DNA of 64,000 bases from the IMG/VR virus record IMGVR_UViG_3300007735_000799, positions 32,001 through 96,000 of that record; one strand, 5' to 3'. The notes below the pieces were generated by a model that was not told the origin of the DNA, searched no databases, and saw only the letters and a list, made by a program, of their open reading frames with translations. The position numbers and the translations under genes are program-made. This stretch comes from a virus. Numbering within the stretch: the first letter of the stretch is position 1; each line of letters starts with the position of its first letter. This document shows, one piece after another, positions 41,837-63,182 of this stretch.

Positions 41837-42301
41837 TTAACGAGTATCAGTAGGAATATCGTTTGTTGCATTCTCTAAACATATTTTTAAATGTGCTTCA
41901 ATCTCTAAAAGTAGACGGTTATGGGCGGAGTTGATACTCTGTACTGCTTCTTCATATTTTTTCCAAGCATCTTCTATGTCTTTATTATATTTTTCGTCAC
42001 ATTTCTCTATAGTCCAATTAGGATAATCAGTTATAGCCCAGATTGACTTACATTCAATATAGGTTGCATATGCTTTTATCAATCTCTGCTTAAGGAAATA
42101 CGCCGCGTTTTTCAAAATTTCCTGACGACCGATTTCCAACTGATTTATGTCTCTGTTGGCCTTTTCAAAACATAGTTCAATACTCATTTTACGCTGCCAC
42201 CACGGAACACGATCTATATCAGAGAGAACTATAGGCGCGTCGTAATCGACTCGTTGATTTAAGTACGGATAATTGGTATTTGTGTTTGGTTTTATAGCCA
42301 T
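41837..42301 (-). CDS. 154-aa four-Cys helical hairpin protein
   Basis: Start reset to MAIKPNTNTNYPYLN to match neighbour. Confidence 0.65.
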   Translation of the reverse strand: MAIKPNTNTNYPYLNQRVDYDAPIVLSDIDRVPWWQRKMSIELCFEKANRDINQLEIGRQEILKNAAYFLKQRLIKAYATYIECKSIWAITDYPNWTIEKCDEKYNKDIEDAWKKYEEAVQSINSAHNRLLLEIEAHLKICLENATNDIPTDTR

Positions 42302-42333
42302 TTGGTGTAATTTCCCGTACCGATATTCATCAG

Positions 42334-42798
42334 TTAAGCAGTAGGCCCTTGTGTTCCTTGTGCCTTCTTTAAACAAGAGTATAAAATTTTGTAATTCGAC
42401 AGTTCCTCTAGAGCCGTCTGTTTTCCAATCGACTCTATTCCTCTTTCATATTGTTCTGCCGCCTCATTTATTAGTTTATCTTTTTGTTTCTTACATTCGG
42501 CTATAGACGGTCGGTTAGGATTCGATAAAGGAAGTTGCCTGATTGTAATACACTCAAAATAGATTTTATATGCTTTTGAGATATCCTCCTTGTACAATGC
42601 TTTGTAGTATTTGATGCGGCGGTAATAGTTTGTTTGTGTCTCTAATTGTAAATTATAGAATGTATCAAAACACTTCTCTATCTCTTCTTTAAAGCGCGTA
42701 TCAGTATCCTGATCCTGAGAACCAACATCTTCCAAGGCATCTTGATCTGATTCATTTAAGTACGGATAATTGGTATTTCTTTCTGGTTTTATACCCAT
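42334..42798 (-). CDS. 154-aa four-Cys helical hairpin protein
   Basis: MGIKPERNTNYPYLN; AATAAATA late promoter at 42828..42835. Confidence 0.65.
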   Translation of the reverse strand: MGIKPERNTNYPYLNESDQDALEDVGSQDQDTDTRFKEEIEKCFDTFYNLQLETQTNYYRRIKYYKALYKEDISKAYKIYFECITIRQLPLSNPNRPSIAECKKQKDKLINEAAEQYERGIESIGKQTALEELSNYKILYSCLKKAQGTQGPTA

Positions 42799-51607: not shown

Positions 51608-52582
51608 TCAATACGGATACTTTACATTGGATTGTGTATCACTCTGTTCTAACACCCGTGCGCCTGATTCTTTTGCCTTTAGGCATTCCTCGTAAACCCG
51701 TGTGCCTTCCACACAACACAATATCTGCTCACAAGGCTTAGTTGTAGGAGGTGAGTCTGGCCATATTCCAGGTTCTTGTCCAGTTTTCCTTCGGTAGGTG
51801 TCGTCGTTATTCTTGGTTGCATTTCCCGCTTCAGTTTCAGCATTAGCAGCACAAATCGCGTAACGCAGCCCGCATTGTTCTGCGGTATTATCCCATCTTT
51901 CACAACTAATCTTATCCGCATAACATTTTGCTAAATCCTGCTTTAGTTTTTGTTCTATTCGGTTGTCTTCTTGTTCCCAGTCTGCAAAAGCCTTGTTTCT
52001 ACAGTTTACGCTAGCACTAATCATACGGTTTATACATTCACGAAAATCTTGACCGGTCGGTGGTTTGTATATAACAACTTCAGAACCTGAATTTTGTGAG
52101 TTTGTTGATTGCCTTGCAATAAAATTTGAAATTACAGGAGTTCCTTTAATTCCGTAATCCCGAACAGGAGTGTAGGTTCCTGCATACTGTGCGGTATCAG
52201 ATATACCACCAGTTCCTATAGGGCCATTTGTATCACAACAAATTTGATACATAGTATCACCTTCTTGTGTGCAATACTGTTCATCGCAACAAGTGAATGA
52301 TGCTCGAAGTTCCGCAAGATCTGTGTTGTATCTATTTTCAAAAAACGCAAACATCTGATTTCTTGTGTCCGCGCACTGAGTTGCACAACCACAAGGATCA
52401 CAACCACACGCTGCAACACACAAGTAATACTCATCACTAATTTGTTGTTGCCGAGCCACCCATTGCTCTGCTAGCATTCTTTCTTGAAACGCTAACATTT
52501 GAGCACGAATAGCAAAACAAGAAGTTTTTGCTCTTTGTTTTTGAATATTGCAGTAGTATTCCCATTTACATGTGGTTGACAT
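51608..52582 (-). CDS. Cys-rich helical protein
   Basis: Start reset to MSTTC after AGGAG; 24 Cys counted in 324 aa; ends YPY. Confidence 0.65.
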   Translation of the reverse strand: MSTTCKWEYYCNIQKQRAKTSCFAIRAQMLAFQERMLAEQWVARQQQISDEYYLCVAACGCDPCGCATQCADTRNQMFAFFENRYNTDLAELRASFTCCDEQYCTQEGDTMYQICCDTNGPIGTGGISDTAQYAGTYTPVRDYGIKGTPVISNFIARQSTNSQNSGSEVVIYKPPTGQDFRECINRMISASVNCRNKAFADWEQEDNRIEQKLKQDLAKCYADKISCERWDNTAEQCGLRYAICAANAETEAGNATKNNDDTYRRKTGQEPGIWPDSPPTTKPCEQILCCVEGTRVYEECLKAKESGARVLEQSDTQSNVKYPY

Positions 52583-52596
52583 TTTATGCTCCTTTA

Positions 52597-53601
52597 TTAA
52601 GAACTGTTTCTGCTTGGCCACGGCGGTAGACCTAGCCCTGCGGGAGGAGGCGCAGTGGGTAGTGAATTTGTTGGTGGAACCGGATTGATTGGTGGAACCG
52701 GTTCGCCCCATGCGTCTCGAAGTTTTTTAAGAATCTCAATTAACAACTTTTGATCTATTTCAGGTGGGCCCAGCAGTGATTTTAAAAACTCTATAAGTGC
52801 TACAAGTCCACGATGATGCCCTGATAAAATTGTTAGTAAATTTATCAGTTCTTGAATAGCGTCGGTTGGACTTTTTTGTGCTTTTCGTATCAATTGTTCC
52901 ATGTAACAGCGTTTTGGAGTTGAACTTTTACTGCAAGGTGGTGCAGTCAGCATTTTCTCAAAGTTTAATGAGTCGAAAAGCAAGTCTACACAACGATCAC
53001 CAAATGGATCGTTTTTACAGTCCTTCCCCAAATCTTCAAGGTCTTTTAAAATGATTCTAAACGCTTCTGCCAAGCAACTAGCAAAATCTTTACATCTGTA
53101 TTTGGTTTTTAAACACTCGGGACATGGTATTCGAGGAGGGCCCGAACAATCCAACATCATTCCACGATTTTTTGGACGAATCCAAACCGAATTTAATTTT
53201 TCACACAATCCTTTTAAAAGATCGTCTTCGTTTGCAAATACACCAAGAAGATTACCGACAGAATCACGACGAGTTTGTTCTATATCCGAAATATTACGAT
53301 ACGAATCAATGTAAGCGTAAGCATCAGATAAAGGCTTATACGGGTATTGAATGCTAGCAACAAGTTTACTTACAGTTGGCTCTTCAATACTTCTTTTTAC
53401 AGGAGACATGCATTTTTCATACTGTTCAGCAAGTTTTTCCCATGCGTCTAATATTTTTTTACATTTAGGATCGTCTGAACGAGTGTTGGGATCATTGCAA
53501 CACCCACAAACATCTTCGTCTTGACAGCAGTAGAAAAAGTACCGCAAGTCAGAAATTTGTTTTCTTAAATCATCACATTGTCTAACTCGAATGTACGGCA
53601 A
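52597..53601 (-). CDS. Cys-rich helical protein with Pro-rich tail
   Basis: TTG start after GGGGAG; CC motifs, QYPY; GATAAATA late promoter at 53632. Confidence 0.65.
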   Translation of the reverse strand: MPYIRVRQCDDLRKQISDLRYFFYCCQDEDVCGCCNDPNTRSDDPKCKKILDAWEKLAEQYEKCMSPVKRSIEEPTVSKLVASIQYPYKPLSDAYAYIDSYRNISDIEQTRRDSVGNLLGVFANEDDLLKGLCEKLNSVWIRPKNRGMMLDCSGPPRIPCPECLKTKYRCKDFASCLAEAFRIILKDLEDLGKDCKNDPFGDRCVDLLFDSLNFEKMLTAPPCSKSSTPKRCYMEQLIRKAQKSPTDAIQELINLLTILSGHHRGLVALIEFLKSLLGPPEIDQKLLIEILKKLRDAWGEPVPPINPVPPTNSLPTAPPPAGLGLPPWPSRNSS

Positions 53602-53668
53602 GACGCTCCCCTTGTTGCTAACAGTTTACAGTATTTATCTAATTTGAGTTATTGCTTTTATTTTTAAA

Positions 53669-54142
53669 TTATTGTTTATTGTTTTTCTTTGAGTTTTCCC
53701 AAAGTTCCCAAATCATCGTTGGGTTTTTTTGCACTTGATTTTTTATGTCGTTTTCCATTTTGTTTAACGAGTCTTCAGTTGGAGTCTCTGAAAATGGAAT
53801 TCCCTCATTTTCCATCCATTCTCCTCCTGTAGAATCCAAAATTTTCCATCTACTTCTTTCAGGGTTATTGGTATCAAGGAAACTACTAGCCCTAAGAATA
53901 GAAAGACTGTTTGCTCGATAAAGGTTGTACACACTGTCGCAAAAATTTACATAATCCAAAAAATTTACAAATTCAAATGAGTCTAACGACAAAATTAAAT
54001 CTGTGTAGTCTACCGCAATTCCATCAATATAATAAACTTTACAGATCTTTATGTTTTGATTTTCTATAAAAATTTCACAGTCATTCAAAATTACTCTATA
54101 GTTGTGAGTGACTTTATTTGTATTACTCATATTATTACTCAA
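53669..54142 (-). CDS. AT-rich hypothetical protein
   Basis: Coupled to receiver-like gene. Confidence 0.5.
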   Translation of the reverse strand: MSNNMSNTNKVTHNYRVILNDCEIFIENQNIKICKVYYIDGIAVDYTDLILSLDSFEFVNFLDYVNFCDSVYNLYRANSLSILRASSFLDTNNPERSRWKILDSTGGEWMENEGIPFSETPTEDSLNKMENDIKNQVQKNPTMIWELWENSKKNNKQ

Positions 54143-54537
54143 TTTCCAATAAGTTTAAAAAGATTTTTCATTGTCCAAGCCCACGGAATTTTAAATGTGT
54201 AATTTTGAGTTCTAGCAAATAAAGAAAGAATATCTTGCGCTCCAACAGAATTTGCAGAATGCACAACAAGAAGAGTGGAATCTGAAATATCGCCGTCATC
54301 AATCTTCTGACGAACCGCTCGGGCAAAAGGCAGAGAAGTAACATACTCACCAGCAGATCCCTCTCCCAAATCGTGATCGAAACAAATCACATCATAATTG
54401 TTAGTCATCAATAAATCAAAAGCCTCCACACAAGTGTATGCAGAATCAACTCGGCAATTTGGGTTGTTTTGAATGAATGCGGCGTGACGATGTTCATCGT
54501 CATCAAGAACCAATACAATAATAGGGTGGGTATTCAC
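54139..54537 (-). CDS. cyclic-phosphate processing receiver-like domain protein
   Basis: LVLDDD...DVICFDHDLG...VVHSANSVGA; TTGACT-16-TATACT promoter 7 nt before GTG start. Confidence 0.75.
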   Translation of the reverse strand: MNTHPIIVLVLDDDEHRHAAFIQNNPNCRVDSAYTCVEAFDLLMTNNYDVICFDHDLGEGSAGEYVTSLPFARAVRQKIDDGDISDSTLLVVHSANSVGAQDILSLFARTQNYTFKIPWAWTMKNLFKLIGN

Positions 54538-54612
54538 ACTAAAAGTATATCACATTGCTCAAAACAGTCAACTTGTTTTACAAAAATTAAAATATAAGAT
54601 TTTAAATTAAAA

Positions 54613-55320
54613 TTATGCTTCCCAACCCGAAACACCCTCTCGTTGACTTATCCTCTTTACAGGATCTATTATAACTTCAGGAAATTTTATTGGAACTGGA
54701 GGAACAACTACTCCACCACCAGGTCTAATTACAGGAGGTAAAGGGGGTTTTCCATTTTGTTTACAGGCATCTTCGGCTTTCTTTCTTTTATCACAGCAAT
54801 TACAAGGAATTGGTGGTGTGTTAAAGGGAGGATAATTTGTTCCAACACTTTCAGCCCATTCTTTATTAGCAGCATCTATTTCTTTTTGATATTCTTCATA
54901 ACCTTTATTGTATATGTTATTGTATATGTTGTTACATTCTTGACAAGCACGACTTTGCAGGCTACTCCCTTGATTTCCGCAACTTTTTGTTTTATATGTA
55001 CAATACGGAAATTTTTCTACATCTTCAGCACAATCGTTTGAACTACACAGAGGATTACCAGGAATTCCAGGAGCGTAAACCCCGCGTCCAGATTCGCGGA
55101 TGCATAGTGGTGCTTCTTGGCAGTCTATTCTAGCCTTAATTGCTTCGTGCACCACTCCAGGAACTAAAAGTTCATTGCTGTTTGGAGGCGGCTTAAATTT
55201 TCCAAACAGTTTTTCTTGAGCGAGTTTTATTCTCGCATCTCTTTTTGCTCCAGCCGCGCTTAGACATTCCTCGTATATTTTGTCTGCATAGGATTTACAA
55301 TCAATTGAGTCGAGTGGCAT
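54613..55320 (-). CDS. Cys-rich protein with Pro-rich tail
   Basis: Helical segments bracketed by Cys, TNYPP and CNCCDK; CATAAATA late promoter at 55362. Confidence 0.65.
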   Translation of the reverse strand: MPLDSIDCKSYADKIYEECLSAAGAKRDARIKLAQEKLFGKFKPPPNSNELLVPGVVHEAIKARIDCQEAPLCIRESGRGVYAPGIPGNPLCSSNDCAEDVEKFPYCTYKTKSCGNQGSSLQSRACQECNNIYNNIYNKGYEEYQKEIDAANKEWAESVGTNYPPFNTPPIPCNCCDKRKKAEDACKQNGKPPLPPVIRPGGGVVVPPVPIKFPEVIIDPVKRISQREGVSGWEA

Positions 55321-55379
55321 ATTAGAGGTTCCTTTAAAGGTTTTGTTTTAAATTACAAAAATATTTATGAAAAACAATT

Positions 55380-56975
55380 TTAAACACCGATTGCTCCACC
55401 ACTACTTATGATACCATCTATAACTCCAGGCAAACTGCTAAGAGAGGAAGCAAATGCTTCGTAAATATCTCCAAAATTACAAGGAATAAGTTCGGGATCG
55501 GGATGCCAACCACAAGCACATCTGTGAGAGTGTACAAAAACACCATACGAAGTCATAACTTGACATGTATTAGCGTGTTTATTAGCGGGTGTATTAGCGG
55601 GTGTATCCCCCGTACAACCCGGACCACAAACTGTCCAAGTATTGATAGCGTATGATGATGGAGGATTCACATCGCCGTTAACTAAACCACATTTTGTACA
55701 ATCGGGTCCTGGTGCACTTCCTCCGTAACCGCTTCTTGGCGGGCAATTTTTCTTAAATCCATTTTGTCCAGGCGTTGCTGCAACATTAGTATTCAGGTAA
55801 TTTTCATTTATATTATCGTAATAAGTTGGAATATACTTGTTGCCCATTAAAAGAGTTAATCCAACTCCTTGAACGCAAGAACCACTACCATCAGAACCTG
55901 ATGAAGAATTTCCACTGCAACCATCTACATCTTTGTCACAACAGCCACTTTTTATTGCGTCTTCCATATCGTTATAGTACTGCTCGGCGGCTGTATATCT
56001 TTCTATTTGCTCGGCATTACGAACAGTTGTTGTCCAATTTTCACATTTTTGATTTAAACATACAACTAAATTCGCTAGTGATCCTAAAAGGATAGCGAGA
56101 GCAACATAGGGAACTGCTCTACCAGTTGCTAGTAAAAGTGTTCTTAAATTACCAATTGTGGAACCCACTAAACCAACAAAAATAACACCAAAGGTTTTAA
56201 GTGCTCCTCTTATTCCTCCAGAGAATTTTGAGAAATTTGCTCTAATGCTTTCTTTGATGTTTTTTAATTCGTGTTGAACCAAAGTGCTAAAAGAAGTTAT
56301 GTTTCTTTTGGGTAGTGTTAACAGATATCTTAGTTTGTTTTCAATTTCTCCTTTTAGAAGCCTTAACGCATCTTTTTCTGGATTTGTAAGTTTTCTGTTT
56401 TTCGTAGGATGCCAACCACTAAACAACATTTCTTCTATTACTTTAAGTTTTTCTCTTTGACCTAGTATTTGCCTATCAAGATTCTCATTAAAAAATATAT
56501 TTTCCAGCATTTCCTTTGTTGTAAGAGCCTTAATATTGTTTATTCTTTCAACAATCCAAGTGCTAGCACTTCCAAGAGCAACAGATAAATCTATTAGGTA
56601 AGTAAAAATAAGAGCAATACCAAATATTTTCATCAAAAAAGAAATCCAGTCTTCCAGACAGTCTAATGCACCATATATAAAGTCTTGTGCCGCTTTTGTA
56701 ATTTTACTGTTTACGGCTCCTAATCTTTTTTCAAAGTTACAATAAATTTCATTAAAAGTATCCGCACAGTCTTTGCTTATGGTGTCGGCATTTTCTCCGA
56801 TAATTGTAGTAACAGAATCTAAACTTTTACCCACATAAAGAGGAAGTTTGTTTATTGGCATGGAATAAGGATATTCCGCGCCTTTAAAATATACAGTAGA
56901 CAACAACATTCCACTTTCATAGTTTAATCCTGTCGGAATGACATTGGTATATAAAAATTGTTCAATTCGTCCCAT
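55380..56975 (-). CDS. Cys-rich hairpin/TM paralogue A2
   Basis: Start reset to MGRIEQFLYTN; SGCCDK and VQGVGLTLLMGNKYIPTYYDNIN core. Confidence 0.75.
   Translation of the reverse strand: MGRIEQFLYTNVIPTGLNYESGMLLSTVYFKGAEYPYSMPINKLPLYVGKSLDSVTTIIGENADTISKDCADTFNEIYCNFEKRLGAVNSKITKAAQDFIYGALDCLEDWISFLMKIFGIALIFTYLIDLSVALGSASTWIVERINNIKALTTKEMLENIFFNENLDRQILGQREKLKVIEEMLFSGWHPTKNRKLTNPEKDALRLLKGEIENKLRYLLTLPKRNITSFSTLVQHELKNIKESIRANFSKFSGGIRGALKTFGVIFVGLVGSTIGNLRTLLLATGRAVPYVALAILLGSLANLVVCLNQKCENWTTTVRNAEQIERYTAAEQYYNDMEDAIKSGCCDKDVDGCSGNSSSGSDGSGSCVQGVGLTLLMGNKYIPTYYDNINENYLNTNVAATPGQNGFKKNCPPRSGYGGSAPGPDCTKCGLVNGDVNPPSSYAINTWTVCGPGCTGDTPANTPANKHANTCQVMTSYGVFVHSHRCACGWHPDPELIPCNFGDIYEAFASSLSSLPGVIDGIISSGGAIGV
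55806..55873. repeat. 68-bp identical core, copy 1 of 4 (also 57439..57506, 59093..59160, 60689..60756)
   Basis: atttatattatcgtaataagttggaatatacttgttgcccattaaaagagttaatccaactccttgaa compared by eye in all four. Confidence 0.95.
56868..56933. repeat. 66-bp identical block shared by A2 and A1 (copy at 60125..60190)
   Basis: aggatattccgcgcctttaaaatatacagtagacaacaacattccactttcatagtttaatcctgt. Confidence 0.92.
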
Positions 56976-56997
56976 ATGAGTGTCCCGTTTCTTATGT

Positions 56998-58743
56998 TTA
57001 CATTCCGCCATAGCCCACAGATCCTGGTCCGTTTCGGGATAACCAGTCACCAATATAGGATGCAAAATCTGTCATTCCTTGTTTAAACAACGAAAGACCA
57101 TCTGAAAGAAGGTTTCCTATTTCGTATGGTGCTGGAGGGTGTTCTACATGTCCGAAGTAGCCTCCTTCGTTAGCCCAACCCGTTTTATCGGGGTATCCAC
57201 AAGCGCATTCAGGCGACGGCACTGTTAAAGACCCAAAACCCAGAGAAATTTGTTTAGTACACCCATTCCAAGGATTGTTGTTTGGGTATGCTCGGAACTC
57301 ACCACTGTCGTCAGGATCTATAATTTTTCCGTATTTAGTACAATCAGGGCCACCAATGCTTCCTGGTTTTGGAGGACAATTTGGTTTCCAACCGTTTACT
57401 CCAGGCGTTGCTGCAACATTAGTATTCAGGTAATTTTTATTTATATTATCGTAATAAGTTGGAATATACTTGTTGCCCATTAAAAGAGTTAATCCAACTC
57501 CTTGAACGCAAGAACCACTGCCGCTGCCGAAACCACTGCCACCACCACTGCCGCCATTGCAGTCTCCGCTACCTTTATCACAGCAGCCACTTTTTATCAG
57601 ATCATTGATTTCTTTTTCGTATCTAACTTCAGCACAAAATATACTATCAGGGTAATTTTTGCATGCGTTTTCTCTATCTGGTCCTAAATAATTTCCTCTT
57701 CCAACCGCTTGATCTATAGCAGATTGCCAACGACGATTGGCCTTGTCGATATTGTCTACTAGTTTTTGATAAGAGTTTAAAAGTGCTTGGACTAGTAGAT
57801 ACATCAAATAAACATCTAGCACATTGATAAGTAGTTTAATAGTCAACTTTAATACTAGCCAAAAGACTTGAAGAACTGTCTTAAATCCTGATAGAATTTT
57901 TGTTATTATATTTATACTTACACTGCCTTTTCTTGCCTTTTTAACCCAATCTTTAGATAACTGTGCTGCGGAAGGTGAACTGTTTCCCCAAGTGGCAACT
58001 GCGGGAAATCTTGAAACAATATCTCTTATGAGAGAGTTAAGAATTGCTTGTCGTAAACGAAGTCTGTTTAATTCATCAAGTAATTGTGATCTTTTTGCAT
58101 CGGTCATGTTAGTTCTAACAGACCGCCAATCAGGAACAGTACCTCCAGTACCACCAAGCAGGAGTATTATTTCACTCATACGCTTTTGATTGTTTTTTAA
58201 TTCTGTCGTATATGCTACCCATTCTGCTTTCATTTGACTATACTGCTGATACAAGCCAGTTGAGATGTCTGTACGAACTACAACACCAGCGGCAACAAGA
58301 GCAGCATACTCTTCAGGAGTATTGAATGCTTCGGCAAATTTATCAGTCAAAATTGCTGGTATGTTAAAAACAGTATATAATGCAGTTGCTTCCCCCAACA
58401 GACTACCGTATTCATACAGACTATCAATAATATCATCATACCAGTTGGAATATGCGTTCCTAATTTGTATGTTAGAGGTTGCTAATGATACTTCTAATTT
58501 ACGAAAGACATTATGGAAGTTATTCAAACATTCTTGAGATACATCGTCAGGATTGCCAGTCAGCATTTTTGTTAAAGAGTCTTTTGATTTACCAACATAT
58601 AAAGGTAAATTGTTGGGAAGAATTAAGTATGGATACTCAGAGCCCTCAGTTTGTACCAAAGACCTTAAAATATCAGTTTGATAATTTAATCCTGTTGGTA
58701 TGTTGTTTGTGTATAAAAAATGTTCAATTCTGTTAGATTGCAT
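56998..58743 (-). CDS. Cys-rich hairpin/TM paralogue B2
   Basis: MQSNRIEHFLYTN; same core; hydrophobic hairpin. Confidence 0.75.
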   Translation of the reverse strand: MQSNRIEHFLYTNNIPTGLNYQTDILRSLVQTEGSEYPYLILPNNLPLYVGKSKDSLTKMLTGNPDDVSQECLNNFHNVFRKLEVSLATSNIQIRNAYSNWYDDIIDSLYEYGSLLGEATALYTVFNIPAILTDKFAEAFNTPEEYAALVAAGVVVRTDISTGLYQQYSQMKAEWVAYTTELKNNQKRMSEIILLLGGTGGTVPDWRSVRTNMTDAKRSQLLDELNRLRLRQAILNSLIRDIVSRFPAVATWGNSSPSAAQLSKDWVKKARKGSVSINIITKILSGFKTVLQVFWLVLKLTIKLLINVLDVYLMYLLVQALLNSYQKLVDNIDKANRRWQSAIDQAVGRGNYLGPDRENACKNYPDSIFCAEVRYEKEINDLIKSGCCDKGSGDCNGGSGGGSGFGSGSGSCVQGVGLTLLMGNKYIPTYYDNINKNYLNTNVAATPGVNGWKPNCPPKPGSIGGPDCTKYGKIIDPDDSGEFRAYPNNNPWNGCTKQISLGFGSLTVPSPECACGYPDKTGWANEGGYFGHVEHPPAPYEIGNLLSDGLSLFKQGMTDFASYIGDWLSRNGPGSVGYGGM

Positions 58744-58753
58744 TTAAATTCCG

Positions 58754-60241
58754 TTATCTATCACCTATTGCTCCACCTGTGTCTAAAACTCCGTCTATAA
58801 TACCAGGAATACTTCTAACCAAAGTTAAAATCCCACCAAGTGCTGAATCAAGAATATCCTTTAAATCACATGGATCTAATGATGGTTCCTTTTTCCATCC
58901 ACACGCACAGGTATGATTAGGAATCGGAATTCCTAATGAAGAAGTTATCGGTTTATCCTTACACTTTTCCCATTTATTATCATCAGGAGTTCTAGTTAAT
59001 CCACAGGTTAGACAATTAAATTGTGGAGGACAATTTGGTTTCCAACCGTTTACTCCAGGCGTTGCTTCAACACTAGTATTCAAGTAATTTTCATTTATAT
59101 TATCGTAATAAGTTGGAATATACTTGTTGCCCATTAAAAGAGTTAATCCAACTCCTTGAATACCAGAACCACTGCCACTACCGTTATCACAGCAACCTGA
59201 TTTAAATATTGCTTCCATAGTGTCATAGTATAGGATTGCTGCGTTAGATCTGTCTATCTGTTCAAGATCTCGAATTTTTGTTAATCTTTTTTCACAAGCG
59301 GCTGTAAAACATTGGTACAGTTTTGTATTAGCATATATCAATACTGATAAAGCGACCCAAGGAAGTAATCGTGCTAATCCCGCCGCCAAAGTACCAAGTA
59401 ATGTTTTAATTTTTGAAAAAAATGTACTAATAAATACTTTCGCTTTGTTTAAAACTCCGGAAACTCCTGAAGTGCCACTTTTTGTGTACTGTTTAACTAG
59501 TCTTTCAATTTCTTGTGCTTCTCGCTCTAATTCGGCAGTTATATAGTTTAGCGGACGAAGTTGTTGTCTCAAATTTCGTAATTCAACGATCAATTCTTCT
59601 CTAAACTTAACGAGAACCCGGCGAACAAGCGGTCCTTCGGGCTTATGACCGTTACGACCAACCAACTGACCTGTAATTTCTTCAATAGTGTCCTCTAGAT
59701 ATTCGATTCGATTTTTAAGTGCATCATTGAACTGTTGATTTGCTGCGGTTTGCTTTCCAATTGCTTCTTTATGTTTTGCTATTCTTGCCGTCAGCCAGGC
59801 TGGAATAGTAGCAGTAATTCCTGATTCTAATCCAGATTCAAGGATATATTCAAATGCTTCTGATAATAAATTTATTCCTAGAAGTGCGCCATAAGTACGA
59901 GCCCAAGTTAAAAGACAATTCATAATATCGTCAACCCAGTTTTCATCCGCTTTATCAATTGAATATTGTATTGATTCTAAATTTTTTTCAAACCCACAAT
60001 AATTTTGATTAAATTTTTCTTGGCATTCTGTGGATATAGAGTCACTATCAATACCACTCATATTTTTTGTAAGAGAGTCTCTACTTTTTCCAACATAATT
60101 TGGCAGATTAAAAATGTCTATATGAGGATATTCCGCGCCTTTAAAATATACAGTAGACAACAACATTCCACTTTCATAGTTTAATCCTGTGGGAATAGCA
60201 TTTTGATATAAAAATAACTGAATTCTATTATTGATTATCAT
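58754..60241 (-). CDS. Cys-rich hairpin/TM paralogue A1
   Basis: NNRIQLFLYQN; same core. Confidence 0.75.
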   Translation of the reverse strand: MIINNRIQLFLYQNAIPTGLNYESGMLLSTVYFKGAEYPHIDIFNLPNYVGKSRDSLTKNMSGIDSDSISTECQEKFNQNYCGFEKNLESIQYSIDKADENWVDDIMNCLLTWARTYGALLGINLLSEAFEYILESGLESGITATIPAWLTARIAKHKEAIGKQTAANQQFNDALKNRIEYLEDTIEEITGQLVGRNGHKPEGPLVRRVLVKFREELIVELRNLRQQLRPLNYITAELEREAQEIERLVKQYTKSGTSGVSGVLNKAKVFISTFFSKIKTLLGTLAAGLARLLPWVALSVLIYANTKLYQCFTAACEKRLTKIRDLEQIDRSNAAILYYDTMEAIFKSGCCDNGSGSGSGIQGVGLTLLMGNKYIPTYYDNINENYLNTSVEATPGVNGWKPNCPPQFNCLTCGLTRTPDDNKWEKCKDKPITSSLGIPIPNHTCACGWKKEPSLDPCDLKDILDSALGGILTLVRSIPGIIDGVLDTGGAIGDR

Positions 60242-60248
60242 GGTTGAT

Positions 60249-60317
60249 CCTCCTGCAACTACTATATCTGGAATTATTCATTATTCTCCTCCTGTAACTA
60301 CTATATCTGGAATTATT
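60249..60317. repeat. 30-bp direct repeat with 1 mismatch at B1/A1 junction
   Basis: cctcctg(c/t)aactactatatctggaattatt at 60249..60278 and 60288..60317. Confidence 0.9.
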
Positions 60318-62020
60318 GTCCTGACATAATCAATAAGCCCTTGGTGAAGACTTTCAAATCCTTGATAAAAAGTTGATACAAAATCGCAAGGACTAACGGC
60401 TGGCTTGTTTGGACGAGGCCAACCACAGGCACATGTGTGGTTTTGAACAGATACTACCGGACTATTTGGATCCGTTGTATTTCCCACAATAGTTACCACA
60501 GGATCAGTACAAATGCTCCATGTATTTTTATCATAAACCGTCCCCGACGAGGAGTTCGTTTCGTCTGCTACTTTGGTTTTACATCTAACGCAATTAGCAG
60601 AATAAGGTGAACCAGGCATAGGCGGGCAATTTGGCTTAAATTCGTATTTTCCTATCACCGATTCTTCATTCGTATTCAGGTAATTTTCATTTATATTATC
60701 GTAATAAGTTGGAATATACTTGTTGCCCATTAAAAGAGTTAATCCAACTCCTTGAACGCAAGAACCACTGCCGCTACCGCTGTTTGATCCACCATTGCAT
60801 CCTCCGCTACCTTTATCACAGCAGCCACTATTTAATATATTTTGAAGACTCTCATAATATTCCTTAGCGGCTTCTGCTCTTTGATTCTCTGCCGAACGAA
60901 CCGTTCTTTCCCATTTTGCACATGCTTGTGATATTTGTTGTTTTAGATTTCCCAACCCTGCAATTAATGCTGATACCGCATAAATTCCAGCAGCAACAAT
61001 AATAACACTCAATGCTATCAAAGTTAATTTTAATGCTATAATAAACGCTCCAACTGCTGCTCCAAGTAAAGAAAAAAGTTTAAGCCATTCCTCCGCTGTT
61101 GGAAGATAAACAGACCCTCGTCTCCAAAAATTTTCTCCGGCAAAATAAGTGTCGCTCTTCCTAGCCATCAGTGTTTTAATAAGAAGATTTATAGTATTTC
61201 TAAAATCTGCCGTAATCGACCCTATTGTTCCAGGACCACCGAACAACTGTGGATTATTTTTTACTATACTTAAAAGTTCAGCAGCGGTTCCTCTTATAGT
61301 ATCTCTCATTATATTCAGTGTTGCTCCAAGTCTGTTTGCTTGAGCGCGCAATATTTTAAGTTCTTTATCAATATCAAAGAGGACACTTTGCTGGCTCATC
61401 TGTCTTCGAACTGCTTCCAATTGAGCAATTCTCTTTCTTGTTTTCATAAATTCAGCGTTTGTCTTTTGAAATTGTATATCTAAGTTCAACAAGTCTTCCA
61501 AATATTCTTGGGCTTGTTGAAATATTGGATCATCTCCTTGAAAACCACCCGCAAATCCTACTGCGAGTATATAATTCGGATCAGTTTTAATATCAAAACC
61601 GTCTTCGCCGACTGGAGTAGTTCCAGCAAGAGAATTTATAAAATTTAAATATAATTCTGGAAGTGGAAATATATCTCTTAAAATGCCAACCCAATCTACC
61701 AATGCACCGCTAATATCCTTAACAAATGTATCTCTTGCGTCTATGATTTTTTTGTTTATACCAGCCAATTTATATTCAAAATTGCAATAAGTGTTTTCGA
61801 AGTCATTCAAACATGCTTGAGATACCTCGTCAGGATTGCTAGTCAGCATTTGTGTTAAAGAATCTTTTGATTTACCAACATAACTAGGCAGTTCAGGTGG
61901 TAAAAATGGGTACTCTGCTCCCTCGTGATACACCAAAGACCGCAACATCGCTGTTTCATAATTTAACCCTTTTGGGTGATTATTGGTGTAAATAAAGTGT
62001 TGAATTCTGTTAAATTGCAT
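60281..62020 (-). CDS. Cys-rich hairpin/TM paralogue B1
   Basis: MQFNRIQHFIYTN; same core; CTAAATA late promoter at 62057..62063. Confidence 0.75.
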   Translation of the reverse strand: MQFNRIQHFIYTNNHPKGLNYETAMLRSLVYHEGAEYPFLPPELPSYVGKSKDSLTQMLTSNPDEVSQACLNDFENTYCNFEYKLAGINKKIIDARDTFVKDISGALVDWVGILRDIFPLPELYLNFINSLAGTTPVGEDGFDIKTDPNYILAVGFAGGFQGDDPIFQQAQEYLEDLLNLDIQFQKTNAEFMKTRKRIAQLEAVRRQMSQQSVLFDIDKELKILRAQANRLGATLNIMRDTIRGTAAELLSIVKNNPQLFGGPGTIGSITADFRNTINLLIKTLMARKSDTYFAGENFWRRGSVYLPTAEEWLKLFSLLGAAVGAFIIALKLTLIALSVIIVAAGIYAVSALIAGLGNLKQQISQACAKWERTVRSAENQRAEAAKEYYESLQNILNSGCCDKGSGGCNGGSNSGSGSGSCVQGVGLTLLMGNKYIPTYYDNINENYLNTNEESVIGKYEFKPNCPPMPGSPYSANCVRCKTKVADETNSSSGTVYDKNTWSICTDPVVTIVGNTTDPNSPVVSVQNHTCACGWPRPNKPAVSPCDFVSTFYQGFESLHQGLIDYVRTIIPDIVVTGGE

Positions 62021-62081
62021 TTGTCCCCCAATTGATTTTAATTTTTTTACTGTTAATATTTAGGTTTTTGCCTATATTGTG

Positions 62082-63182
62082 CTATTCGGTAATTTCAGCA
62101 GACTCTTTAATTGATTTCATACCAGCAATAATCATTGCTTTTGTTTGCTTATCGTAGGAATTTATGATTTCTTTAATTCTTTCAACAGCGTCAGCAGCGT
62201 TCATTTTACGAATCTTTGCGTCAATCTCAGCCTGCTTTGGGTCAACAGCCTCTTCAACTTCTTCTTTCTTAACAGGCTTGCTTGGCTTGCCGGTAATCTT
62301 GTAAAGAGTATCACCTTCGCCGTGTTGAACGGAAATCTTGTAGCCTTGCTGGCGAAGAGCGTTCAAGTCAACCTTGGTTTTCTTTAAAGACTTCCACTCG
62401 GCTTCGGTAACAACCTCTTCCTTCTGAATCTTTTCCTTGGTAACAAAGATGCTTGCAGGCTCGCCTACATCAACCACATACCCACCGCCGTGCTGCTGTG
62501 CCTTGCTTGTGCCACCGTCATCGTAGCGAATAATCCTGCCAGACACCATCTTGCCCTTGTGAGGAACCTTTACCTTGTCGCCGTCTTTAAACGCTTCAGC
62601 AATCTGAACATCTTCACCCATCATTGAGCCTTTAGGACTCATGCTACGCACAATGTCAACTCCCGAGAAGCCTAGACCCTTGCCGTAATTGAATCCACCG
62701 CTAATTGCACCATCGTAAGCACCGCCAACCTGAACTGAATTGCTTGGAAACTGCTTTCTAACAGCATCGTATACACTCTTGCCGAAACGATCTAGCAGTT
62801 CTTTGTTGCTGGCAATTATATTGCCAGTATCAACGGTTATGCCTTCAAAACCACCGTGAAACAATCCTGAAGTGTCTTTAGGCGTCATATACCGAACATC
62901 AAAACGACTTTGAGCCACAATCTTGTATTGTTTGCCAGCGTCGTTCAGCACCTTCTTAAAGAAATTTACAAGTTCAGGTGAAGCACTCTTGCCGTAGACA
63001 CGAAGCATAAACCCGCTAACCGCAAACTTAACATCACCGTCTTCGTCTGCACTCATGGCTTTCAAGAGTTCCATGTTGTAGTTAAAAGGTGCAACTGTGC
63101 CTAGTTGCTTGGCTTCAGCAATAGGCTGTGGGTTAACAATCTGATTTGCGGCTTCGGCTAGTCTTTTGGCGGTTCCTGACAT
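62082..63182 (-). CDS. candidate multi-segment internal head protein
   Basis: Repeated LAE-A, IAE-A, VTE-A, IKE-S sites; SH3-like segment; CTAAATA at 63206..63212. Confidence 0.6.
   Translation of the reverse strand: MSGTAKRLAEAANQIVNPQPIAEAKQLGTVAPFNYNMELLKAMSADEDGDVKFAVSGFMLRVYGKSASPELVNFFKKVLNDAGKQYKIVAQSRFDVRYMTPKDTSGLFHGGFEGITVDTGNIIASNKELLDRFGKSVYDAVRKQFPSNSVQVGGAYDGAISGGFNYGKGLGFSGVDIVRSMSPKGSMMGEDVQIAEAFKDGDKVKVPHKGKMVSGRIIRYDDGGTSKAQQHGGGYVVDVGEPASIFVTKEKIQKEEVVTEAEWKSLKKTKVDLNALRQQGYKISVQHGEGDTLYKITGKPSKPVKKEEVEEAVDPKQAEIDAKIRKMNAADAVERIKEIINSYDKQTKAMIIAGMKSIKESAEITE

Follow-up and report, generated by a model that had tools for sequence, protein, structure and literature searches.

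Four tandem cysteine-rich paralogues with hydrophobic helical hairpins in a distant relative of T4-like cyanophages: candidates for an envelope-active assembly

Introduction

Toxins of the ClyA family (YaxAB/XaxAB, AhlABC, Hbl and Nhe) consist of several paralogous all-alpha proteins per operon, built from long antiparallel helices. In the tripartite members, the paralogues of one operon have hydrophobic heads whose length differs between components (PMC6602965). In this study, we describe four tandem phage genes, g4, g3, g2 and g1, whose products resemble these toxins in layout, including a graded hydrophobicity among the paralogues of one putative operon. The window, that is, the whole stretch of DNA analysed, comprises 64,000 nucleotides (bases 32001-96000) of the 119-kb IMG/VR viral record IMGVR_UViG_3300007735_000799, the completeness of which is estimated at 52%. 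The ClyA-family toxins are bacterial and have no sequence or profile similarity to the four proteins, which are predicted phage late genes. Moreover, the putative cysteine (Cys) staples, conserved N-terminal module, Gly/Ser linker, invariant core and Cys-rich tail described below are not found in these toxins. Membership in the ClyA family is thus not supported, and the functional parallel is only an analogy.

Type III secretion translocators of the IpaB/SipB/YopB class have about 580 residues, with a partner-dependent N-terminal segment, a coiled coil and a two-helix hydrophobic hairpin. Their size and layout are similar to those of the four proteins. However, these translocators are Cys-poor and are not known to occur as four concerted paralogues, no Pfam match was obtained, and the T4-like phage record contains no secretion-system or chaperone context. 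Weak profile matches to the IpaB coiled coil (E 0.009-0.02) reflected coiled-coil composition only.

In the distal tail-fibre and adhesin genes of T-even phages, short conserved blocks flank variable segments and the copies exchange at these blocks. Mosaic tracts are also present in the array. However, no gp37 or gp38 homology was found, homogenisation of the conserved blocks here involves four paralogues within a single genome, and the encoded proteins are helical with hydrophobic hairpins. Tape-measure and ejection proteins are likewise long and helical, with hydrophobic segments thought to enter the host membrane. For these proteins the scores were at noise level (phrog_1535 matched one paralogue only, with E 0.0048 and 16 bits), the array lies outside the tail module, and nothing in them corresponds to the set of four paralogues, to the Cys pairing or to the invariant core. 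A tape measure was ruled out by this noise score and by the adjoining CobS-like, peptidase and replication genes.

Results

Architecture of the four proteins

The four genes are co-directional on the minus strand, and alignment showed that they are tandem paralogues with products 34-45% identical. Their arrangement is a mosaic in B-A-B-A order. The first gene, g4 (60281..62020), encodes an A-type protein of 579 amino acids with 14 Cys and a hydrophobic hairpin at residues 309-360 (nt 60941-61096). It is followed by g3 (58754..60241), encoding a B-type protein of 495 amino acids with 14 Cys and a hydrophobic stretch at residues 269-306, and by g2 (56998..58743), encoding 581 amino acids with 12 Cys and an amphipathic-hydrophobic stretch at residues 275-324. 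The last gene, g1 (55380..56975), encodes a B-type protein of 531 amino acids with 18 Cys and hydrophobic regions at residues 104-142 and 251-311; its start codon is the ATG at 56975 rather than the TTG at 57065.

All four proteins begin with a conserved segment of 55-70 residues, followed by a Cys that opens a long helix. The helical middle part is variable, with insertions and deletions, and contains a hydrophobic stretch of 38-61 residues in the Kyte-Doolittle analysis. It is followed by a helix that ends in SGCCD and, after a Gly/Ser linker, by the invariant segment QGVGLTLLMGNKYIPTYYDNIN.NYLNT; the tail has the Cys motifs NCPP, CxxC, CACGW and CxC. The alignment thus contained all of the shared elements that a preliminary description of the window had listed for these genes, including the hydrophobic hairpin. 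The Kyte-Doolittle score was highest for g4 (2.67 for residues 309-360), followed by g1 (2.14 for residues 251-311), g2 (2.01) and g3 (1.79). The g4 stretch comprises 48 hydrophobic residues with a single Lys, and g1 has three hydrophobic helices. A head of two adjacent helical segments of bilayer-spanning length was therefore identified in g4 and g1 by the Kyte-Doolittle scores, and more weakly in g2 and g3. No signal-peptide-like hydrophobic run was found when the N-termini of the seven Cys-rich genes of the locus were inspected, in agreement with the preliminary description.

The g3 protein (495 amino acids) was modelled with AlphaFold2 (AF2) using a 24-sequence alignment. Helices were predicted at residues 71-121, 125-140, 148-194, 204-227, 236-254, 260-292 and 294-347, with a predicted local distance difference test (pLDDT) score of 80-90. 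The outgoing helix (71-121) starts at C73, and helix 294-347 leads into S348-G-C-C-D352, so the model reproduced the outgoing and returning helices proposed earlier. Part of the tail was modelled moderately (pLDDT 70-84), and the N-terminus and invariant core poorly. The tail and core folded alone gave a mean pLDDT of only 40.8, and the N-terminal 55-70 residues are predicted not to fold independently.

These data support an all-alpha "stalk-and-head" fold. The stalk would be a two-helix antiparallel pair pinned by Cys pairs at both ends, and the head would comprise a variable polar coiled-coil arm and a hydrophobic helical hairpin of 40-50 residues. Beyond the head, a Gly/Ser linker, an invariant 28-residue core and a small Cys-rich tail folded back onto the stalk would complete the molecule.

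At 61268-61648, the variable helical arm of g4 was also observed as a second allele that diverges strongly, with about 30 differences and small insertions. This allele coexists at about one third of the depth in runs X1 and X3, which belong to two studies. Such variation would be as expected for a surface under selection.

Cysteine pairing

Co-variation of Cys was scored in the 24-sequence alignment of family members. C73 and the CC of GCCD were universal. C109 and C311 were both present in 10 sequences and both replaced in 13, and C82 and C413 were both present in 15 and both absent in 6; neither pair showed an exception. The g2 protein, which lacks the C82/C413 pair, differs in it from its own orthologue P0011; thus, more than one evolutionary event underlies this pattern. 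C316 is missing from the g2 type, which carries two extra Cys jointly in an insertion, and two further Cys are jointly present in g1, P0008 and P0009. The number of Cys was even (12, 14, 16 or 18) in 18 of the 21 full-length members, as it was in all seven Cys-rich genes of the locus.

The registers of C73 with C350/C351 and of C109 with C311 would fit one continuous antiparallel helix pair of about 36-39 residues. As far as these registers go, they support the hairpin architecture independently of the AF2 model. The 82/413 pair supports a placement of the tail on the stalk, which would explain why the tail was modelled only in the full-length protein and not alone.

The gain and loss of Cys in pairs, the even counts and the higher conservation of Cys than of their surroundings are features of disulphide-rich extracytoplasmic proteins, and this pattern supports disulphides rather than four-ligand metal sites. 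The terms "disulphide-stapled" and "modular" in the preliminary description were supported by the co-variation, the stalk-tail pair and the even counts. The export signal of such extracytoplasmic proteins was missing, since none of the four has a signal peptide. Neither thioredoxin nor glutaredoxin was found in the 119-kb record, of which only about half of a genome is represented (52% complete). Erv1 also had no match there, and the positive control of the Erv1 search was silent as well. The Cys-rich locus is the most Cys-rich part of the record, with three genes at 5.4-6.8% Cys compared with a median of 1.3%.

Invariant core and concerted evolution

Each gene contains a 66-nt invariant core encoding QGVGLTLLMGNKYIPTYYDNIN, located on the minus strand at 60689..60754 (g4), 59093..59158 (g3), 57439..57504 (g2) and 55806..55871 (g1). 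The array recurs with unchanged gene order in two related contigs of 185 and 182 kb (L005 and L006), and the orthology is clearly 1:1. The identity of the orthologues in L005 and L006 was 98% and 96% for g1, 90% and 86% for g4, 88% and 82% for g2, and 81% and 75% for g3. The core was identical at the nucleotide level in 10 of the 12 copies from these three phages.

The nucleotide identity between paralogues was 25-45% in the middle of the genes. High-identity tracts were found between g3 and g1 at codons 21-40 (98%), between g4 and g2 at codons 51-70 (92%), among all pairs in the core (95-100%), and between g3 and g2 directly after the core (95%). They are discrete gene-conversion tracts whose partners change along the genes. 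In L007 and L008 (orthologue 53% identical), the core has four synonymous changes that are common to its paralogues. L009, a more distant lineage, has two tandem paralogues that are 39% identical overall and nearly identical over some 95 residues (linker and core) and in an N-terminal block; its core peptide differs from that of the four window genes. The N-terminus and core are thus homogenised within each genome while drifting between genomes, a pattern of concerted evolution by gene conversion. This pattern suggests that all the paralogues have to match a single common partner or one another. The array is a clean natural case of concerted evolution in a phage operon, in which docking-like modules remain identical and the rest diverges.

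The core ends in TATAAAT(A/G/C). The g2 copy runs into a perfect T4-type TATAAATA at 57438-57445, within the coding region, and TATAAAT at the core end is followed by no in-frame start codon.

Traces of rearrangement were also observed in the array. At 60248-60317 on the minus strand, the 3' end of g4 is duplicated in tandem over 31 nt and forms the leader of g3, including its GGAGGA ribosome-binding site; this is probably a scar of unequal exchange. Run X3 contains a variant with a 7-nt deletion at this duplication. In one contig of run X10 (depth 3.4), the Gly/Ser linker of g2 (57540) is joined to that of g4 (60762) with 25 other letters between them, which is either a recombinant array without g3 or an assembly chimera across the repeat.

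Promoters, operon and genomic context

The late promoter reported for the T4-like cyanophage S-PM2 is NATAAATA (PMC2984593), and the motif TAAATA in the window matches it. There are 32 copies of TAAATA on the coding strand and 11 on the opposite one. One copy (62057..62062, minus strand) lies about 40 nt upstream of the start of g4 and is the sole such motif upstream of the four-gene array. The motif also precedes the Cys-rich genes at 54613-55320 and 52597-53601 and a gene for a 366-amino-acid protein at 62082-63182. The genes g3, g2 and g1, and the gene for a 324-amino-acid protein further downstream, have no TAAATA of their own and start 10-40 nt behind the preceding gene. This spacing and the missing motifs point to co-transcription, and the four large genes are predicted to form one late operon. 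The preliminary description had most of the Cys-rich genes preceded by TAAATA. Three motifs do serve the seven genes; four of these genes, as stated above, have none of their own. Sigma-70-like promoters and terminators were not enriched in the region.

The window encodes a family-B DNA polymerase, a RecA/UvsX-like protein, adenylosuccinate-synthetase-like and GMP-reductase-like enzymes, a GDP-mannose dehydratase, a CobS-like AAA protein and a large peptidase (phrog_459). The DNA polymerase is about 50% identical to gp43 of T4-like cyanophages such as S-RSM4, S-PM2 and S-CAM3, which places the phage, on this similarity, as a distant relative of that group. The array is located directly upstream of the CobS-like gene, and orphan genes surround it. 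The peptidase and CobS genes of S-CAM3 lie between gp46 and gp45, in a replication/recombination block. Public runs containing more than half of the Cys-rich locus were river, lake and viral metagenomes from at least four independent studies, and no RNA run was among those listed. The phage is widespread in rivers and lakes.

Search for relatives

A profile search of 1.84 billion representative proteins gave 23 matches, nine of which were below 1e-30, and a collection of 5.8 billion proteins gave 15 matches. All were metagenomic, none was longer than 614 amino acids and none had a Pfam domain. The distant homologues P0030, P0033 and P0025 are located on contigs of less than 3 kb each. A search with a 4-row alignment detected only two further viral loci. 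No match was obtained by tblastn and megablast in 50,697 phage records.

No Pfam or NCBIfam family was detected for any of the four proteins at E <= 0.1 or 0.01. Across Pfam, PHROGs, NCBIfam and PADLOC, nothing rose above noise (PspC TM, E 0.096; phrog_1535, E 0.0048; LmuB, E 0.0016). The PDB profile search reflected coiled-coil composition only, and the Cys-rich tail alone had no match to PDB sequences at E <= 10. Foldseek with the g3 model against PDB and BFVD gave no row at E <= 0.001. Weak BFVD rows included tape measure, internal virion protein, DNA transfer protein, tail-fibre chaperone and receptor-binding entries. A wide VIA-align search found only generic helical hairpins (Z <= 9.6). 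The best ESM Atlas score was 0.78, below the noise level, and the tail had no usable match there. A literature search for Cys-rich transmembrane virion proteins of myoviruses found only eukaryotic viruses. As in the preliminary description, in which the family was not recognised, the four-gene family appears to be an orphan, with no relative by sequence, profile or fold above the coiled-coil background.

A second structural look gave YaxB (Z 8.6; root-mean-square deviation (rmsd) 5.3, 105 aligned), AhlC (Z 8.5; rmsd 4.2, 105 aligned), XaxA (Z 7.1-7.4) and YaxA (Z 6.9), all members of the ClyA family.

Discussion

We tentatively favour the possibility that the four proteins form a released or virion-borne, envelope-active assembly with a membrane-entering hairpin. 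The Cys pattern, the late promoter, the conserved four-part set and the docking-like homogenised modules point in this direction. The proteins would be made in the cytoplasm late in infection and would exit together with the virion or alongside it. They would become oxidised outside the cell; oxidation is placed after release because the Cys are paired and no export signal is present. They would then act jointly on the host envelope from outside, where the hydrophobic hairpin would enter the membrane, as in multi-component alpha-pore-forming toxins and secretion-system translocators. The identical N-terminus and core would serve for docking, either to a single shared partner or among the four proteins. 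If the hairpin entered from the cytoplasmic side, both Cys-rich parts would stay within the cell, whereas entry from outside would place them in the periplasm or medium, which favours action from outside. A more specific form of this proposal is a dedicated four-component, disulphide-locked membrane-insertion machine, a translocon or pore assembled via the identical docking modules; we regard it as somewhat unlikely. If true, such a machine would open or remodel the host envelope at entry or exit and would be unrelated to known toxin, translocator, holin, spanin and tape-measure families. Envelope crossing by contractile-tailed aquatic phages and lysis without recognisable holins by relatives of T4-like cyanophages are poorly understood, and the four-gene family, being conserved, four-part, apparently Cys-pinned and equipped with membrane-type hairpins, is a concrete candidate for a new envelope-active machine.

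Several observations weigh against an envelope-active assembly. The hairpins of g3 and g2 are weakly hydrophobic and contain Lys, and they could be a plain bundle core. The array is located outside any virion structural module, in a plastic, replication-side region where the CobS-like and peptidase genes adjoin it. The N-termini of the four proteins (MQFNRIQHF..., MGRIEQF...) do not have the (L/I)xE capsid-targeting pattern; a capsid-targeted T4-type internal head protein was ruled out, as no (L/I)-x-E leader of about 10 residues is present. The co-variation of C109 and C311 may stem from one evolutionary event, and paired Cys could in principle be metal ligands. The YaxB, AhlC and XaxA rows were tied with the coiled coils of Smc, LSD1 and PI3K and lay below the helical background of about 13, and the part of the model aligned in the ClyA-type rows was the polar arm (residues 145-256) rather than the hydrophobic hairpin.

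An unlikely alternative is that the proteins belong to the virion as soluble adhesins or appendages (for example fibres, whiskers or head/tail decoration) and that their N-terminus plugs into equivalent particle sites. The variable arm and Cys-rich tail would bind the host surface, and the hydrophobic helices would be a buried core that never enters a membrane. A shared N-terminal module kept by gene conversion and combined with variable distal parts is the organisation of phage fibre sets, the orthologues diverge fast (75-81% for g3 compared with 96-99% for neighbouring genes), the allelic diversity is located in the polar arm, and disulphides suit an extracellular structural protein; the tail-fibre chaperone and receptor-binding entries among the weak BFVD rows are in line with this. 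However, the 48-residue stretch of g4 (2.67) and the hydrophobic helices of g1 look transmembrane rather than like a coiled-coil core, the Cys register corresponds to an intramolecular antiparallel hairpin and not to a parallel trimeric shaft, no fibre or decoration family showed similarity, and the array lies outside the structural module. Rather less probable is a role in the inner membrane of the infected cell. The hairpin would be the anchor, both large parts would be cytoplasmic, the Cys would ligate metal or stay reduced, and the proteins would function in lysis timing, superinfection exclusion, membrane remodelling or assembly scaffolding. Insertion with both termini inside is standard for a hydrophobic hairpin of two helices that has no signal peptide, and the tail contains CxxC and CxC motifs. 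No holin or r genes have been recognised in T4-like cyanophages (PMC2984593), and late membrane proteins of unknown role are thus expected in such phages. Counts of 12, 14, 16 and 18 are not all multiples of four, and Cys are lost in pairs with no replacement by His or Asp, both of which disfavour metal sites, and disulphides would not form in cytoplasmic domains. The weak hydrophobicity of g3 and g2 also speaks against anchoring, and four paralogues of 500-580 amino acids are unlike any known holin, spanin or exclusion protein.

Release at lysis of colicin-like or anti-grazer pore-forming toxins, acting off-particle on other cells after the burst, seems highly improbable. The architecture argues for it as it does for the envelope-active assembly, and the multi-gene operon resembles those of tripartite toxins (PMC6602965). 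No Pfam match to colicins or the ClyA family was found, a lytic myovirus would gain no obvious benefit, and the strict 1:1 conservation and concerted docking-like modules suggest an assembled machine. The missing signal peptide of the four proteins, their length of 500-600 residues, their disordered conserved N-terminus and their long helical hairpin may recall the organisation of colicins. A side question, compatible with any of the protein readings, is whether the core DNA itself is functional, as a recombination linker that swaps paralogue halves or as an internal late promoter; we consider this improbable. The 66-nt identity in 10 of 12 copies suits such a role, as do the conversion tracts that begin or end at the core, the switch of partners across it (g4/g2 and g3/g1 at the N-terminus, g3/g2 just after), the TATAAAT(A/G/C) end with its perfect TATAAATA in g2, and the linker-to-linker joint of the X10 contig. 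However, the copies still match within a genome in L007/L008, despite the four synonymous changes, and in L009, despite its different peptide, which argues for concerted evolution and not for a fixed DNA signal. Furthermore, TATAAAT is followed by no in-frame start, and the X10 joint, at a depth of 3.4, may be an assembly chimera across the repeat. The envelope-active assembly remains our preferred, though tentative, reading of the four proteins.

Neighbouring Cys-rich genes and other observations

Three smaller Cys-rich genes follow the array on the minus strand. The first (54613..55320) encodes 235 amino acids with 14 Cys (6.0%) and has its own TAAATA at 55362-55367; it is present in L008 (48% identical) and absent from L005 and L006. 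The second (52597..53601; 334 amino acids, 18 Cys) lies behind the TAAATA at 53632-53637 and shows a presence/absence polymorphism. It is missing in L005 and L006, and in run X1 one contig skips exactly 52584-53648 while another keeps this stretch. The third (51608..52582; 324 amino acids, 24 Cys) is co-transcribed with the second according to the predicted units, and in L005, which does not have the 334-amino-acid gene, the same promoter directly precedes it. Its open reading frame of 367 codons truly starts at Met44, as the similarity to relatives begins at residue 42 and this codon has an AAGGAG ribosome-binding site in front of it. Every Cys of the 324-amino-acid protein is invariant in homologues that are only 46-77% identical.

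The seven Cys-rich genes of the locus and a pair at 41837-42798 had been described as one family. The 235-, 334- and 324-amino-acid proteins showed no BLASTP or profile-profile similarity to the four large proteins or to each other. The pair consists of mutual paralogues (E 2e-12) that are not homologous to the four, and its members have only 4-5 Cys (2.6-2.8%). A single homologous family of seven to nine Cys genes was thus ruled out by the BLASTP and profile-profile comparison.

The GC content of the Cys-rich locus (52000-62000) was 36-38%, compared with 43-45% for most of the window and 53-55% at 44-50 kb, which suggests an island of separate origin. The genes flanking the array (62082-63182; L011 1210-4103) start with T4-like capsid-targeting leaders (MSGTAKRLAE, MKDFQVFNE, MKSFKTHLTE and MKSFTTHLAE). 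Beyond the window end (L011 6494-7496 and 8033-9973), two small proteins with a C-terminal Pro-rich motif, a hydrophobic helix and a basic tail are encoded near a 646-amino-acid Gly/Thr-rich orphan, none of which has a Pfam match. Between the Cys-rich genes, 54139-54537 encodes a stand-alone cREC_REC receiver domain of 132 amino acids (PF20274, E 1.5e-9). This gene is 84-99% conserved in relatives and the next gene (157 amino acids) 73-99%, far above the surrounding Cys-rich genes.

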